A stretch of DNA of 64,000 bases from an uncultured Fibrobacterota bacterium. GTDB lineage: Bacteria > Fibrobacterota > Chitinivibrionia > Chitinivibrionales > FEN-1185. Of the stretch, positions 4,462 to 43,230 are shown piece after piece (within the stretch, counting starts at the first letter, position 1; each line of letters starts with the position of its first letter). The notes under the pieces are model-generated. The model was given only the letters and a program-made list of their open reading frames with translations, was not told the DNA's origin and made no database searches. The stretch spans positions 1-64,000 of the forward strand of contig CAVWBU010000041.1 of the NCBI GenBank assembly GCA_963753345.1, written 5' to 3'. A program made the translations under genes and the position numbers.

Positions 4462-5535
4462 TCACAACCTGCGCAGCCAGCCGGTCACTTCTTCGCGGTC
4501 GTGAAAAAGGTGTTTGATAAACAACTCATGGCGCATGCCGTGGCGGCCCAGTTCGGCTTCGATGATTTGCCTGCACCTGACGACCTCCTCATACCGTTTC
4601 TTCATCGGCAGCTTGAGGTTGAAGATCGTAATACGGCACCATTGGCGGGCGATCCAGTTCGCCGCGAGCTTTGCAATGCGGGACGGCTGCTCCACAACGT
4701 CGCACACCATCCAGTATGCAGGATCGTTCGGCGCAAACGTGAATGCGTCGGCCCTCACGTGGCGCACAAGACCGGATCGCAGGAGTTTTGCTTCAAGACG
4801 GCCGTTGTCCACGGCCGTCACGCGCATGCCGCGGGCCGCCAGTTGCCACGACCATCCGCCGGGACTGGCGCCGAGGTCAACGGCGGAAAGTCCGGGCCTG
4901 AACATTTTTCCTGTTTGTTCATCGGACATAAAGACCTTCCATGCCTCCTCGAGCTTGAGCGCGGAGCGGCTGGGCGCGCCCGCCGGAAACCTGAGCCGCG
5001 GAATGCCCATGCGCCAGGGCGACGAATTGTTGACGAATGATATTCCGGGAATCGCGCTGTTTGTTGACGTGAAGAAAACATGGAGCCTTGTCTGCTGCGA
5101 CCCTTGTTGCGCGCCTTCATCAGCAATAAGTCCTTTTTCCGACAGCGCTTTTTCAAATGGAACCGCAAGCTTTTTGCACAGCGGACTCAATTGCTTGGCA
5201 TCGTTGGTGTCGGCAGTTTCGAGAAAGAAATTGGAAAATGAAATTCCGGCTTGCGAAACGGCATCAACTACCGGCGAAACCCTGTTTCCGGGCTCAAGCG
5301 GGCCAATCCCATCGAACGCGGCGATCATTTGACGCGCAAAGGTGACGGACGCAAAGAGAAGGTCCCTTGCACACGCAAGCGCGGCGCGCGGGTCCGCGAA
5401 CCTGAACAGCACGTACCCGCTTCCGGGCCCGGCATGCACCGATTTCCCCGGTCCGAACCTTTTTGACAATTGAGAAAATTCAAGGCAACATTCACCCTCG
5501 AAGCCGGGCCTGCAGTAGAGGAGGATGTCGGTCAT
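4462..5535 (-). CDS. rlmM: 23S rRNA (cytidine 2498-2'-O)-methyltransferase
   Basis: LLYCRPGFEGEC N-terminus, APSRSALKLEEA, AVDLGASPGGWS, FNLKLPMKKRY, HLFHDREEVT. Confidence 0.93.
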   Translation of the reverse strand: MTDILLYCRPGFEGECCLEFSQLSKRFGPGKSVHAGPGSGYVLFRFADPRAALACARDLLFASVTFARQMIAAFDGIGPLEPGNRVSPVVDAVSQAGISFSNFFLETADTNDAKQLSPLCKKLAVPFEKALSEKGLIADEGAQQGSQQTRLHVFFTSTNSAIPGISFVNNSSPWRMGIPRLRFPAGAPSRSALKLEEAWKVFMSDEQTGKMFRPGLSAVDLGASPGGWSWQLAARGMRVTAVDNGRLEAKLLRSGLVRHVRADAFTFAPNDPAYWMVCDVVEQPSRIAKLAANWIARQWCRITIFNLKLPMKKRYEEVVRCRQIIEAELGRHGMRHELFIKHLFHDREEVTGWLRRL

Positions 5536-5552
5536 GGCGGGATGGGAAAAAA

Positions 5553-5680
5553 CGAGTTTAATGTTGGAAGTTTCATGTTGAAAGTCGGATACTACGTGTG
5601 GTGATTGTTTCCATGATCATCTTTTTTTATGTTCCGGCCTTCCGGATTTACTTTCAACTTTCAACATTCAACTTCCAACT
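5553..5680. repeat. Inverted pair of degenerate heptamer arrays (GTTGAAA / TTTCAAC type)
   Basis: gagtttaatgttggaagtttcatgttgaaagt followed by actttcaactttcaacattcaacttccaact in the ligA-rlmM spacer. Confidence 0.6.
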
Positions 5681-5691
5681 ATTTGCTAATT

Positions 5692-7707
<2,016 letters not shown>

Positions 7708-8715
7708 CTAGGCGGTCGCGGAGACGTCGGCGATGATCTGATCGGTAAAATCTTCGAACACCAGGCCGGCCGCGCCGAGCACGCCGGCATTTTCGCCGAG
7801 CTGGGCAATGGCCATGTCGCAGCGCTTCCACACTTCGGGCCAGCAGAACATGGGCACGTACCGCGACACGGTGTCGATGATCACCTGGCCCGCCATCATC
7901 ACGCCGCCGCCGAGGATGATGCGGTCGGGCGACAGCGTGTTCACGATTATGCCCACGCAGCGGGCGAGTTTTTCGCATACAAGTTCGTTGACGCGGCACG
8001 CCACGGGATCGTTCTTCTTGACATAATCGTACACAACTTTCGACGTGAGGCTCTGCGGCTTTCGCAACACTTCGTGGGCGAACGGGGTCTGGTTCTTGGC
8101 GTCGAGGTTCTGGCACACACTGATGGCCATGTCGACGATGCCCGTGGCCGAGGCATACCGTTCCACGCACCCTTTCTGGCCGCAGTTGCATTGCAGGCCG
8201 TTGGTTTCGACGCAGATGTGGCCGAGCTCACCCGCCATGCCGTGTGAGCCTTTGTAAAGCTGGCCGTTGACCACGATGCCGCCGCCGATGCCGGTGCCCA
8301 GCGCGAGACACACCATGTTCTTCACGCCTTTCCCGGCCCCGAACCGCGATTCCGCGAGCGCGGTGACGGTCACGTCGTTGCCGCCGGTGGCCGGGAGCCC
8401 GAACCGCTGCTGGATGGGCTCGTATATCTGCATGCCCTTCCAGCCCGGAAGGTTCTCCGCGCCGCCGAGGATAGTGCCGTCGCGGTCCACAAATCCGGGG
8501 GTGCCTATGCCGACGCCGATGATGTTGTCTTTTGAGCCTTCCTTGAGGATAAGCTTGTCAATGAGGGTGAGAATGTTTTCGAGGACCTTTTGTCCGCCCT
8601 TCTTAGCTTCGGTGGGGATGCGGGTGAGATGACGACCCTCCCCGTCCCTGTTCATGACAATGCCCTTGAGGTTGGTTCCGCCGAGATCGATTCCTATTGC
8701 GACCTGTTCCATCAT
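7708..8715 (-). CDS. ROK family sugar kinase (glucokinase-like)
   Basis: IGIDLGGTN, LGTGIGGG, GELGH, CNCGQKGCVE; start may be up to 8733. Confidence 0.92.
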   Translation of the reverse strand: MMEQVAIGIDLGGTNLKGIVMNRDGEGRHLTRIPTEAKKGGQKVLENILTLIDKLILKEGSKDNIIGVGIGTPGFVDRDGTILGGAENLPGWKGMQIYEPIQQRFGLPATGGNDVTVTALAESRFGAGKGVKNMVCLALGTGIGGGIVVNGQLYKGSHGMAGELGHICVETNGLQCNCGQKGCVERYASATGIVDMAISVCQNLDAKNQTPFAHEVLRKPQSLTSKVVYDYVKKNDPVACRVNELVCEKLARCVGIIVNTLSPDRIILGGGVMMAGQVIIDTVSRYVPMFCWPEVWKRCDMAIAQLGENAGVLGAAGLVFEDFTDQIIADVSATA

Positions 8716-8942
8716 TCGCCTTTCTTGAATCAACCGTGCGCTGAAGAAACGGAGCTATAAAATAAAATCTTGTAACCATTAATGAAAGCACGAAATGACG
8801 GATTTTGGTGAAACAGGGGCGGGGAAACCCGATAAGGCGGGCGATGCTCAATCAATTAAAAGGCCTTCACCCCTTCCTGCGGAAACGGGCAAAGGTCTAG
8901 ACCATACCGCGTTCAAGACGAGCAGTAACGCGGGGAATCCGC

Positions 8943-38767: not shown

Positions 38768-39892
38768 CTACTCCCTTTCCCACGTCGTGATGCCGAGGTT
38801 TTTGAAAAGCTCAACCACCCGGCGCGCAGTGTCGCGCGATTCAAACGCCAGCCGGATCGTGCCGGCTTCGTTCTCCCTCACCTTGAGCACCTCGATGTCC
38901 TTGATGTTGATGTTTTCCTTTGCGCAGGCGTTGGCCATGAGCGCGATCATGCCGGGCTGGTCCTTTACAACTACGAACACCTCGGACAGCGCGCCGATGA
39001 AACCCTTGCTCGACCGCGGGATCTTCGCGCGCGTTTCGGCCGCGGCGTTGAACGCCTTGTCGAGACCGTCGCGCAGCAGGAGTTCCTTCATGGCAAGCAG
39101 CGCCGCGGCGAACTCGTCGATGAGCGGCGCGATGCGCTCCTTGTTGGTCGACAGGATGTCGCGCCACAGGGCGTACGGCGACGACGCGATGCGCGTCATG
39201 TCGCGGAAGCCGCCCGCGGCCAGCGCAAGCGTCCCCGGCGACCTGCCGTCCATGGCCGCGGCGGCATTCACCAGCGCGACGGCCAGGATGTGCGGAAGGT
39301 GGCTCACCGCCGCCGCGATGGTGTCGTGCGCTTCGGGCGAGAGCCGCACGTGTTTGCAGCCGAGATTTGCTTCGAGAAAACGCGCAAAGCCGTCCGCAAC
39401 GGGCGCAGGAACGCTGTCCCCGGGCGTCAGAACGTAGATCGCGTCCTGGAAGAGATACGGGTCGGCCGACGACGGGCCGCGCTTTTCCGACCCGGCCATG
39501 GGGTGGCCGCCGACAAAATGCACGCCGGGCGGAAGGAAGCGCCGCGCCGCGGCGACGATTTCACTCTTGGTGCTCCCGACGTCGGTGACGATGCAGCCGG
39601 CGGGAAGCCGAAGCTTCCCCAGCCGTTCGAGCGCCGCAATGATGCCGTGTATGGGCGAGCACAGGAACAGGCAGCCGGTCGATTGTATCACTGTGTCAAG
39701 CGCGTCGTAGCCGTGCCCTTCGTCGATGCAGCCGAGCGACTTCGCGGCGCGAATGGCCTGCTCCGACGAAAGGCCGACAATGCGTCCCTTGTATCCCGAC
39801 GCCTTGAGGGCAAGCCCTATGGAACCGCCGAGAAGCCCGACGCTGTAAATGGTGACGGTCTTCGGCGAGAATGCGTCCTGCCGCCGGTTCAT
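38768..39892 (-). CDS. tyrA: Prephenate dehydrogenase with C-terminal ACT domain
   Basis: VGLLGGS, TDVGSTK, GGHPMAGSE, SHLPH, GGFRDMTRIA. Confidence 0.93.
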   Translation of the reverse strand: MNRRQDAFSPKTVTIYSVGLLGGSIGLALKASGYKGRIVGLSSEQAIRAAKSLGCIDEGHGYDALDTVIQSTGCLFLCSPIHGIIAALERLGKLRLPAGCIVTDVGSTKSEIVAAARRFLPPGVHFVGGHPMAGSEKRGPSSADPYLFQDAIYVLTPGDSVPAPVADGFARFLEANLGCKHVRLSPEAHDTIAAAVSHLPHILAVALVNAAAAMDGRSPGTLALAAGGFRDMTRIASSPYALWRDILSTNKERIAPLIDEFAAALLAMKELLLRDGLDKAFNAAAETRAKIPRSSKGFIGALSEVFVVVKDQPGMIALMANACAKENINIKDIEVLKVRENEAGTIRLAFESRDTARRVVELFKNLGITTWERE

Positions 39893-40644
39893 AGCGGGTC
39901 CGGCGTCCTGTTGAGCAGATACTTCACTTCGCCCTCTTTGGTAAGCGGAATAATGCAATCGCGGTAGAACCCGAGCACCGTGTCCGGATCGACCACGTGC
40001 CTGCTCGTGCGATTCACGCGCGCCTGGGCCGAGCAGACCTTTGCACGGATCCGTTCAACGATGCGGTCTTCGATGTCGGGCCGCGTGAGCAGGGCGAGGA
40101 GTCCGCCCGCGTCTTTCGCGCGCATCAGCCTCGTGTACAGCCGTTTGTCGCGCAGAAACTTGCTTTCTGCGACGTACAGTGCGCCGTAGTGGATGCGGCG
40201 CGCAATGGCCTGCAGGGCGTACACGTCGTGCTCCACGCTCGATCCGTAGTTGGCGTCGTCGCCTTTTCTGCATAGCAGCGGCACCAGGCCCAGGTAGGCC
40301 GGCATGATCTTCGCGGAAAGGTTGACCGCATTAATGTCCTCGATGCACAGCCCCGTGGGCGGAAGGTGCACCTTCCGCCTCGGCCTTGGCAGCCGGCTGC
40401 AGAACGGACGCTCCTCGGCGACGCAGAAGCGGCCGAACCGCGCGTCCATTTCCTCCTGAAATCGGACCCTGAGCGAGAACAGGCTTTGCCGGGCTGCGCC
40501 GGTGAATCCGCTCCGGCCCGGCAGGTACACGACCGGATTGTGCCGGAATTGCGCTCTGTCAATGAGCTTGAAGATGATGGTCTCCTCGAGCCCCTCGAGC
40601 AGCGTCGTTATCCTTTCCAGGTCGAAATTGCCGCTTGCGGTCAT
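39889..40644 (-). CDS. Chorismate mutase, fungal/plant (Aro7, AroQ-beta)-type
   Basis: LEETIIFKLIDRAQF, NYGSS..D..ALQAIARRIHYG..VAESKF, IIPLTKEGEVKYLL. Confidence 0.88.
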   Translation of the reverse strand: MTASGNFDLERITTLLEGLEETIIFKLIDRAQFRHNPVVYLPGRSGFTGAARQSLFSLRVRFQEEMDARFGRFCVAEERPFCSRLPRPRRKVHLPPTGLCIEDINAVNLSAKIMPAYLGLVPLLCRKGDDANYGSSVEHDVYALQAIARRIHYGALYVAESKFLRDKRLYTRLMRAKDAGGLLALLTRPDIEDRIVERIRAKVCSAQARVNRTSRHVVDPDTVLGFYRDCIIPLTKEGEVKYLLNRTPDPL

Positions 40645-41291: not shown

Positions 41292-41458
41292 AGCGGACCA
41301 CAACCTCGTTGCGGCGGACGTGATCTCATCGGTGCTTGGTAAAAACGGTAGAAAGCCGCACGTACTTCTACTCAGCCGTTGTTCATTTTGGTGAATATAT
41401 TATATTTATTGAGGACAGGATCATCAATCGAACGGCACCAGTGAAGGAGCCACGTGTA

Positions 41459-42220
41459 ATGAAGAAAACGCTCAAAACACTTTTCCTGATGGCCATGCTG
41501 CTCGTTGTTCCGGCCGCCTGCAAGACCGGCCCCCTCATCTCGGTTGATTCAGAAGAAGTCAACCTGGGCACCATCAAACAGGGGACCAAGGCGGCGGCGA
41601 AGTACGTCTTCAAGGTGAAGAACACCGGCGACAGCGTGCTGGTGATCAGAGACGTGAGGCCCGGCTGAGGATGCACCGTGGTGGGTTTCGACACCACCAT
41701 CCTTCCCGGTCGGGAAGGTTCCATAACTCCGGAAGTGAACCTTACGAAGGCGCACGGCGGCACATTCAGCAAATGCGTGACGGTCTCCTCGAACGCGAAG
41801 AACAAGCCCGAGATGCATTTGTGCCTCAAGATGACCCTCAAGGTCCCGCTTGCCGCAATGCCTGATTACATCCAGCTGAGACGCAGTGCAAGCGGAAAGT
41901 TTGAGACCGAGGTGACGCTCTCCACCGACAAACCGGACCTCACGGTGAGGGAGGCTTCGTTCAAATCCACGGCGCAGCCGAACAACCAGAACCAGGCCGC
42001 GTGGATGTCGTCCCTGCCGGACCACCTGGAGTTCACCTTGACAAAACCGGACAAACCGACCGCCGACGGGTCGTGGGACTACAAGCTGAAGCTCTGGGAG
42101 GAACCCATGGAGCTCAAGGAAAACAAGTTCGGCGAGTTTACCATAGCCACCAATCATCCGGACATGCCGGAGCTCAAGGTGAACGGCATCATCGACGCGA
42201 GTCCGGCACCGAAGAAATAG
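41459..42220 (+). CDS. DUF1573-domain lipoprotein, probable selenoprotein (in-frame TGA 41666-41668, motif UGC)
   Basis: AAGGAG RBS, lipobox PAAC, NLGTI..YVFKVKNTGDSVLVIRDVRPG-TGA-GCT..ILPGREG..FSKCVTVSSN; both track ORFs share one frame; SECIS-like hairpin follows. Confidence 0.85.
41669..41702 (+). promoter_or_regulatory. Bacterial SECIS-like stem-loop
   Basis: GGATG/CATCC lower stem, CACC bulge, GTGGTG/CACCAC upper stem, loop GGTTTCGA, starting at the base after TGA. Confidence 0.7.
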
Positions 42221-42248
42221 GGACGTTGCGTCAGTCTGTTTTCTAGGC

Positions 42249-42279
42249 CGGGCCTTGAATTTCAAGGCCCGTTTCTTTT
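42249..42279 (+). terminator. Intrinsic terminator
   Basis: CGGGCCTTGAA-T-TTCAAGGCCCG followed by TTTCTTTT. Confidence 0.75.
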
Positions 42280-42294
42280 GGCAAGGTTCGATCC

Positions 42295-43230
42295 ATGCCT
42301 TATGCATATCTTTTCGGCCCGGTCCCATCCCGGCGGCTCGGCCTCTCCCTCGGCGTGGACATCGTTCCGGCCAAGGTGTGCAACCTCAACTGCGTCTATT
42401 GCGAGTGCGGACAAACAACCAAGCTCACGAATGAGCGCAGGGAATGGGCGCCGCCGCAGGCCGTCATGGATGAACTGTCGGAGTTCCTGGGACGCTCGCC
42501 CGTCCTCGACGTCGTGACGGTAACCGGCTCCGGCGAGCCGACCCTTAACACCGGGCTGCAGGCAATAATATCATTTGTCAAAGAGAAGTTCCCCAACTAC
42601 AAAACGGCGCTTCTCACCAACGGGACCCTCCTGCATCTGGACGACGTGCGGCGCGCGGCGGCGCTGTTCGATTTCGTGCTGCCGTCGCTCGACGCCGTCT
42701 CGGACGCAGTTTTCGCTAAAGTCAACAGGCCGCACCGCGGGCTCGACAATGGCCGGATCGTCGAGGGGATCGCGCAGTTCGCCCGCGAATACAAAGGCAG
42801 GCTGTGGCTGGAGGTGTTCATCGTGCCGGGCGCCAACGATACGCCCGCCGAGTTGTCGCTGCTCAAGGAAGCGGTCCTCGCCATTGCGCCCGGCCGCGTG
42901 CAGCTCAACACGCTCGACCGCCCCGGCGCGAGCGCCTCGGTGCGGCCCGCGACCGGCCGCGAGCTTCTTGACATTGCCGACTTCCTCCGTCCCGCTCCGG
43001 TGGAAATCATCTCGCGGTCATATACTGCAGCCGCGGGCGCCGCAAGCGATGCGGCGTTCGAATCCGTCGTGCTTTCCATGCTCCGGCGCCGGCCCTGCAC
43101 CGTGGAGGACATCGCCGTGGCTTCGGGCCGCGCCATCAATGACATCTCCGGGATTCTGCCGCTCCTCCTTGCCGAAGGAACCGTGTCGACCGAGATAGTC
43201 CTGGGCAGGGTCTTTTACAAAGTGAAGTAA
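42295..43230 (+). CDS. Radical SAM protein (COG0731-like)
   Basis: FGPVPSRRLGLSLG, CNLNCVYC, GSGEPT, C-terminal HTH-like RRPCT. Confidence 0.9.
   Translation: MPYAYLFGPVPSRRLGLSLGVDIVPAKVCNLNCVYCECGQTTKLTNERREWAPPQAVMDELSEFLGRSPVLDVVTVTGSGEPTLNTGLQAIISFVKEKFPNYKTALLTNGTLLHLDDVRRAAALFDFVLPSLDAVSDAVFAKVNRPHRGLDNGRIVEGIAQFAREYKGRLWLEVFIVPGANDTPAELSLLKEAVLAIAPGRVQLNTLDRPGASASVRPATGRELLDIADFLRPAPVEIISRSYTAAAGAASDAAFESVVLSMLRRRPCTVEDIAVASGRAINDISGILPLLLAEGTVSTEIVLGRVFYKVK

Follow-up and report, generated by a model that had tools for sequence, protein, structure and literature searches.

The gene described here lies at positions 41459..42220 of a 64,000-nucleotide stretch (hereafter the window; contig CAVWBU010000041.1 of assembly GCA_963753345.1) from an uncultured Fibrobacterota bacterium of the order Chitinivibrionales; unless stated otherwise, all features are on the forward strand. 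Two open reading frames (ORFs), 41336..41668 and 41678..42220, share one frame and the TGA at 41666-41668 is the sole break between them, an observation of the first-pass annotation that was borne out by the ORF list and the translation. When this TGA is translated as selenocysteine (Sec, U), the ATG at 41459 opens one coding sequence of 253 residues, closed by a TAG stop, with one Sec codon at residue 70 and the product ...VIRDVRPG-U-G-C-TVVGFDTTILPGREG... The start Met could be aligned to the Met of most orthologues, and a Shine-Dalgarno-like GAAGGAG (41443..41449), read from the sequence, is found 9 nt upstream of the ATG, in agreement with the one ribosome-binding site (RBS) claimed for the unit. 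Where a terminator had been claimed downstream of it, a terminator-like stem-loop of 10 pairs, seven of them G-C (42249-42271), is present, followed by the T tail TTTCTTTTGG (whole feature 42249..42281); the terminator scan is weak by itself, since it gave one site against 1.3 expected in shuffled sequences.

The conserved TGA column, the Sec genes of the genome, the covarying RNA downstream of the codon and the hydrophobic N-termini of the homologues support the proposal made earlier that the in-frame TGA is a genuine Sec codon in one exported, two-domain protein of 253 residues. On this comparative sequence basis, the probability of the reading is estimated at about 85%.

Conservation of the TGA codon

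Homologues were searched in 41 genomes (the own genome together with 40 relatives from its order), and a match was found in all 41, with exactly one TGA in 23 of the 60 matches listed. The codon column was then checked in 31 loci, comprising 30 fetched loci and a paralogue of the own genome, while the other matches lie outside this count. The aligned column is TGA in 22 of these loci and TGC or TGT in the remaining 9, at identities down to 31%; this is the count of TGA against Cys codons by which the first-pass annotation had proposed to check its reading. The column stands in the context PG[U/C]GCT(V/L)V, which agrees with the CGCT motif that had been expected at the UGA position of DUF1573 domains, and the U-G-C motif itself (residues 70-72, 41666..41674) consists of invariant columns in the alignment of the 31 sequences. 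Both marks of a selenoprotein were thus found, a Sec/Cys pair at one column and a UGA kept in the orthologues of other organisms.

For the breadth of the TGA form, a degenerate DNA pattern derived from the invariant columns around the TGA was run against prokaryote genomes, with one representative for each species. Of the 58 matches, 29 are DUF1573 homologues with this TGA (19 records of Fibrobacterota/Chitinivibrionales and 10 of Acidobacteriota/Thermoanaerobaculia), the other 29 being unrelated. A protein-pattern scan with CGCTVVx[YF]D, able to find Cys forms only, gave 76 loci, mostly from Fibrobacterota and Acidobacteriota, together with single records labelled, for example, Deltaproteobacteria, Desulfobacteraceae, Planctomycetales, Phycisphaerae, Armatimonadota and Bacteroidota. 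The Sec forms of the Acidobacteriota (loci L128-L160) lie in open frames of 373-780 residues from stop to stop, compared with about 250 residues for the Fibrobacterota proteins, and probably differ from the latter in architecture.

The codon itself was also compared with assembled contigs of public sequencing runs, in order to check for a sequencing error. No differing letter was listed at 41666-41668 in the bridging contigs of runs X1 (study P1, possibly the source sample itself), X4 (study P2) and X20 (an RNA library, study P13), and the TGA is thus unchanged in contigs of other runs; a contig of run X5 starts at 41663 and therefore does not bridge the codon. The RNA-library contig differs from the window at 41644, 41662 and 41728, all of them synonymous third positions by frame reading and none inside the TGA. 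For the nearest relative, the ratio of nonsynonymous to synonymous differences (pN/pS) is 0.16 on the 5' side of the UGA and 0.14 on its 3' side; for a 79%-identical relative the values are 0.21 and 0.29, respectively. These low values on both sides indicate that both halves are kept as coding sequence.

Public gene calls end at the TGA, as they would if it had arisen by nonsense mutation, as a lesion in a pseudogene or through faulty sequencing. Among the 120 closest listed public proteins, 41 are fragments of 173-198 residues that start past the TGA and carry no domain, while the other 79 are Cys forms of 228-290 residues with PF07610. Such an accident is, however, most improbable, given that 22 genomes of the order and 10 Acidobacteriota records share the codon at this column, that contigs of other runs contain it, that both flanks are under purifying selection and that the covarying hairpins, described below, are confined to TGA forms. 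The fragments rather point to a selenoprotein that the databases miss across the whole order.

The same fragments, and a GTG at 41678 that opens an ORF of 180 residues, would also fit two separate genes as publicly annotated, i.e. a short exported peptide that stops at 41668 and a second protein of 180 residues. This arrangement has hardly any probability, since one Pfam domain crosses the junction. The DUF1573 domain, PF07610, covers residues 27-119 (41537..41815) and hence the Sec codon, with an E-value of 1.2e-19 and 70.6 bits against a gathering cut-off of 26.1; over the same stretch the HYDIN/VesB-like immunoglobulin (Ig) domain PF22544 was matched with an E-value of 1.8e-10. In addition, no RBS-like motif is present 5' of 41678 in the sequence, homologues of the Cys form consist of one undivided protein of about 240 residues, and the structural model folds residues 27-128 as one high-confidence beta-sandwich.

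Selenocysteine genes in the genome and the order

All four genes that the first-pass annotation had named as a check could be found in the genome, although selA and selB have apparent frameshifts in this assembly. The genes for tRNA-Sec, selA and selB stand in a row on contig C14 of the genome (approximately 5369-8853; loci L001, L003 and L276), where selA and the SelB winged-helix domain were found immediately downstream of the tRNA gene. The tRNA-Sec is the only tRNA with a UCA anticodon among 53 in the genome. A selD gene is also present; its active-site place reads GGCSAK and is thus the Cys form, a reading made in the own genome only. Among the 41 genomes, 22 have the TGA form, and 21 of these gave a SelA match (the remaining one is 73% complete), compared with 3 of the 18 without a detected TGA form; one further genome has a partial TGA match together with SelA.

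These data bear on whether a near-cognate or suppressor tRNA, or an altered code, places an ordinary amino acid (Trp, Cys or Gly) at the UGA. Read-through of UGA does occur in bacteria. In this genome, however, TGA is the commonest stop and ends 461 of 1028 long coding-like ORFs, which shows that it is a normal stop codon, and none of the 53 tRNAs besides tRNA-Sec has a UCA anticodon. Since the TGA form also tracks SelA and the column is Cys in all homologues without TGA, decoding as an ordinary amino acid is considered very unlikely, and insertion of Sec remains the preferred reading.

The genome (94% complete) gave no match to the molybdopterin-oxidoreductase family, from which it follows that it has no FdhA. 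Of the 25 SelA-positive genomes among the 41, 18 are likewise without such a match and 4 have a match that bears an in-frame TGA, while 22 carry the TGA form of the DUF1573 gene (21 checked at the column and one partial match). A survey of 75 Sec-using organisms from 2006 reported FdhA or a Sec-containing SelD in every selenoproteome examined (PMC1794560). That the DUF1573 protein, and not FdhA or SelD, accompanies selA across an order is possibly new, and if the family does maintain selA and selB, it would be an exception to the FdhA-or-SelD rule for the Sec trait.

RNA structure downstream of the UGA

The region 41660-41720 folds at -30.2 kcal/mol compared with a mean of -21.9 kcal/mol for shuffled sequences (z = -2.8), and only 2 of 200 shuffles are as stable. 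Two abutting hairpins are formed. Hairpin 1 has a stem of 7 bp (41678-41684 paired with 41694-41700) and a 9-nt loop (41685-41693) that begins 16 nt past the UGA. The stem of hairpin 2 is also of 7 bp (41701-41707 paired with 41712-41718), and its tetraloop GGUC (41708-41711) begins 39 nt past the UGA. In single-sequence folds the two hairpins were found in every Sec form and neither of them in Cys forms. The same two helices were recovered by RNAalifold.

In the 22 Sec forms of the order, 92.5% of the cells of the two-hairpin structure are paired, a value that none of 500 shuffles reaches and that falls to 32-54% in slid controls, while in the 9 Cys forms the 47.7% of paired cells equals the shuffle mean. 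For hairpin 1 the paired cells are 99.4% in Sec and 61.9% in Cys forms, for hairpin 2 they are 92.2% and 25.4%. When 10 distinct sequences (1 of Fibrobacterota and 9 of Acidobacteriota) were added, the resulting 32 Sec forms of two phyla had 91.0% of cells paired (again 0 of 500 shuffles); in this set hairpin 1 is paired at 96.9% with 3 pairs changed on both sides, and in hairpin 2 such double changes affect 4 pairs. Double changes from C-G to U-A in hairpin 2 (CCCGGUCGGG to CCUGGUCAGG) are present in 4 sequences and combine a synonymous Pro change with a compensating Arg-to-Gln change. The GGUC loop of hairpin 2 is invariant in the 22 Sec forms of the order; the wobble base of its Gly codon is U in all 22, compared with 2 of 9 Cys forms.

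The test for covariation that had been suggested was therefore positive, with paired changes in Sec forms and a structure absent from Cys forms. The claim of a single adjacent hairpin resembling a selenocysteine insertion sequence (SECIS) held only in part. A structured and covarying RNA does lie 3' of the UGA, but its conserved form is two hairpins, in a register 3 nt away from that originally drawn. The latter register (GGAUG/CAUCC with GUGGUG/CACCAC) was rejected: it is paired in 74.4% of cells in the 22 Sec forms, its upper helix in 60.6%, and 292 of 500 shuffles reach this value.

Bacterial SECIS elements are described in the bSECISearch model by a loop of 3-9 nt with a G among its first two nucleotides, a distance of 16-37 nt from UGA to loop and at least 4 bp in the stem (PMC13188914), while a structural study of SelB places the conserved loop G about 20 nt past the UGA (PMC4605307). 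Hairpin 1 of the window, with 7 bp, the 9-nt loop GUUUCGACA and a distance of 16 nt, agrees with all four features of the model, and in the Acidobacteriota it closes to a tight loop of 3-5 nt. The loop of hairpin 2 always starts with GG, and loop and stem agree with the model in 22 of 22 sequences. Like the bacterial consensus, the element is a stem-loop structure that lies in the coding sequence and closely follows the UGA. It is unlike the consensus in having two abutting conserved hairpins instead of one, and in that the hairpin with the best loop is too distant while the correctly spaced hairpin is without the leading G in some orthologues. With hairpin 1 folded, about 9 + 7 nt and a helix base would separate the UGA from the loop of hairpin 2, which is near the canonical distance.

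The chances that hairpin 2 is the SelB site, with hairpin 1 as a folded spacer, are about even. Binding to hairpin 1 is somewhat less probable, and an involvement of both hairpins or of something else is improbable. SelB carrying Sec-tRNA(Sec) would dock on the adjacent downstream RNA while the ribosome stands at the UGA, and Sec would be inserted without termination, as judged from the anatomy of the element. In Rfam, the region 41400-42300 matched nothing but suhB, below the threshold and in the terminator region, and a literature search for tandem or second-hairpin SECIS elements returned nothing relevant. A two-hairpin SECIS with a GGUC loop 39 nt from the UGA is possibly new, and the conserved element could serve as a test case for the maximal distance of a SECIS loop from its UGA. 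A further proposal is that the DUF1573 protein keeps the Sec trait alive in the Chitinivibrionales and is decoded through a bipartite SECIS, conserved in two phyla, in which a spacer hairpin precedes the SelB-binding GGUC hairpin at 39 nt. This combination is at present doubtful.

Several points weigh against the assignment of a functional Sec codon. All evidence is comparative, and no reported incorporation of selenium was found for any member of the family. For the function, the neighbouring genes offer no clear lead, and the fold matches are only Ig/PapD-like scaffolds. The NCBIfam model NF041425, "OS_HP2 family (seleno)protein", is matched with 70.3 bits (residues 36-124), below its cut-off of 100. 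At the RNA level, the loop of hairpin 1 lacks a G among its first two nucleotides in several orthologues (L016, L026 and L030), and the loop of hairpin 2 lies at 39 nt, beyond the 16-37 nt of the published model. The hairpins also overlap strongly conserved codons. The loop bases G43 and G44 of hairpin 2 are the first two of an invariant Gly codon that is common to the Cys forms, so that the sequence conservation is partly driven by the protein. Moreover, the pattern by which the 10 added sequences were found fixes columns 13, 14, 19, 25, 26 and 29, and these six are thus invariant by construction in those sequences. Finally, selA has one and selB two apparent frameshifts compared with the intact genes of the same genus (genomes G004 and G002), so that in this assembly selA is spread over two frames and selB over three, while rpoB and rpoC, 7.7 kb together, are unbroken. 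The places concerned on contig C14 are at about 6604-6609, 8146-8207 and 8318-8355.

The Sec machinery may accordingly be decaying in this strain, and the gene would then be a relic: the family would be a true selenoprotein family, but with selA and selB broken the UGA would terminate translation, leaving a stub of 69 residues or a separate product of 180 residues from the GTG at 41678. Three shifts within about 3.3 kb of selA and selB, against none in the 7.7 kb of rpoB and rpoC, speak for such a state. One of the selB shifts, however, adjoins an A9 run, where assemblies err, and other indels had been noticed in the window during the earlier reading of the sequence. The DUF1573 gene is free of other defects, with a pN/pS of 0.14-0.16 on both sides of the UGA, and tRNA-Sec and selD are intact. 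A metagenome scan for selA of the same species gave nearest sequences of only 75-81% identity. Taken together, a relic in this strain is unlikely, and a UGA that is still decoded as Sec is preferred.

The protein, its neighbours and related selenoproteins

The N-terminal residues 1-22 (41459..41524) form a putative signal sequence, with a hydrophobic core followed by VVPAAC, according to the alignment and the model; the N-terminus is hydrophobic in all 31 aligned homologues, and the model places a helix of low confidence at residues 4-14. The signal peptide of bacterial lipoproteins ends in a lipobox, with the consensus [LVI][ASTVI][GAS]C. The present protein has a lipobox-like Cys22 with Pro at position -3; the Cys occurs in 4 of 31 sequences, and a relative of 57% identity has Thr in its place. 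Of the exported lipoprotein proposed by the first-pass annotation, export is therefore supported by these predicted N-termini, while the lipoprotein part is not established. Export is uncommon among bacterial selenoproteins.

AlphaFold2, run on the alignment of 31 sequences, returned a model with a mean predicted local distance difference test score (pLDDT) of 87.5 and a predicted template modelling score (pTM) of 0.68, in which the N-terminal helix is followed by two beta-sandwiches. The first contains the DUF1573/HYDIN-like Ig domain described above. The second (approximately residues 131-245, 41849..42193) is predicted from its strands in the model and gave no Pfam match. Like HYDIN/ASH/SPD-2 PapD-like Ig domains, the model is a tandem beta-sandwich (Foldseek probability 1.00, E-values from 1.5e-8 to 1.6e-5 among the rows listed). 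The matches include PDB entry 2qsv, a Porphyromonas gingivalis protein of unknown function, and 2e6j, a single HYDIN domain with a template modelling (TM) score of 0.73 on the target. The TM of the whole model against the listed structures is low (0.24-0.38), from which only the domain fold can be regarded as shared. Sequence searches of the PDB with the protein and with a profile gave no meaningful relative (best E-value 0.023, with the profile), and no listed fold match is described as a redox protein or selenoprotein.

The invariant columns of the alignment are G37, N55, C70, G71, C72, D78, P83, G84, G101, N112, W182 and G225. Positions 70 and 72 are the only conserved Cys/Sec pair, no other Cys column being conserved in the 31 sequences. 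This switch between Sec and Cys at a single column points strongly to the functional site of DUF1573. Once the protein is exported, Sec70 and Cys72 may be joined in a redox-active selenenylsulfide or serve as a soft-metal site at the surface of the Ig-like domain. Judged from the switch alone, we lean towards thiol-disulfide-type redox chemistry in the cell envelope. Vicinal Cys and Sec residues are known from redox motifs such as C-X-C peptides and the GCUG end of thioredoxin reductase. The present motif resembles these in that Sec and Cys stand one or two residues apart, so that a selenenylsulfide would be possible by analogy. It is unlike them in fold and location, and no flavin or thioredoxin domain is present.

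The gene is followed in the window by a radical SAM gene (42295-43230, forward strand), called "wyosine synthetase-like" by one source and scoring above no NCBIfam cut-off. Such a gene follows the DUF1573 gene in 24 of the 31 loci of the order, i.e. in 22 Sec forms and 2 Cys forms, with gaps often of 8-40 nt. It is absent beside all 76 Cys-form loci of the protein-pattern scan and likewise beside all 10 Sec-form loci of the Acidobacteriota. Because of this absence and the very large size of the radical SAM family (7912 matches), it was treated as local synteny and not as a functional partner; the neighbour may be mere synteny or an operon partner. Upstream, a plant/yeast-type chorismate mutase is encoded at 39889-40644 on the reverse strand (TIGR01802, 173.9 bits against a cut-off of 170.9), which overlaps by about 70 nt the start of a prephenate dehydrogenase-ACT gene (38768-39958, reverse strand).

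Further selenoproteins were screened for in the genome. In a whole-genome screen for paralogues, many of the TGAs obtained stood opposite Gly or Arg; these were judged to be antisense frames of real genes (reversed TCA Ser codons) and dropped. Among 10 read-through candidates scanned with Pfam, only a rhodanese-like ORF has a domain across the TGA; the screens are crude, and further selenoproteins are possible. This second candidate selenoprotein is located on the reverse strand of contig C40 (C40:69303-69812; locus L176), and has an in-frame TGA at residue 104, within the motif YCAHQH-U, that lies inside its Rhodanese domain (residues 44-133). In three relatives, homologues of 27-34% identity have Cys at this column (YCRGPYC, YCYGELC), and a hairpin, CUCUGC[AGUUG]GCAGAG, is found 25 nt past the UGA. 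A close orthologue was not found among the 40 relatives.

The first-pass annotation had left open whether the family was already catalogued as Sec-containing, and this is the case. A review of 2022 lists a "DUF1573 domain-containing protein, pfam07610, UGC" with reference to Zhang and Gladyshev 2007 (PMC9312934), and a review of 2026 lists the same DUF1573 UGC family (PMC13188914). In the paper of 2007, OS_HP2 comprises two selenoproteins of deltaproteobacterial worm symbionts (PMC1976440). The strings "Fibrobacter" and "Acidobacteri" do not occur in the 2026 review. Since the family is already listed with its UGC motif, the present protein is a new, un-annotated member and not a new kind of selenoprotein.

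In common with the DUF1573/OS_HP2 selenoprotein, it has the PF07610 domain and a Sec within a U-G-C motif that is aligned to C-G-C of Cys homologues, the two features under which the reviews list the family. It differs from OS_HP2 in its second, unnamed beta-sandwich domain and in its hosts, which are Chitinivibrionales (Fibrobacterota) and Acidobacteriota, the comparison being made with the published description of the family. The branch is thus a divergent two-domain member of a catalogued but uncharacterised selenoprotein family, which is now placed, as a predicted exported protein, in Fibrobacterota of peat and sediment and in Acidobacteriota.

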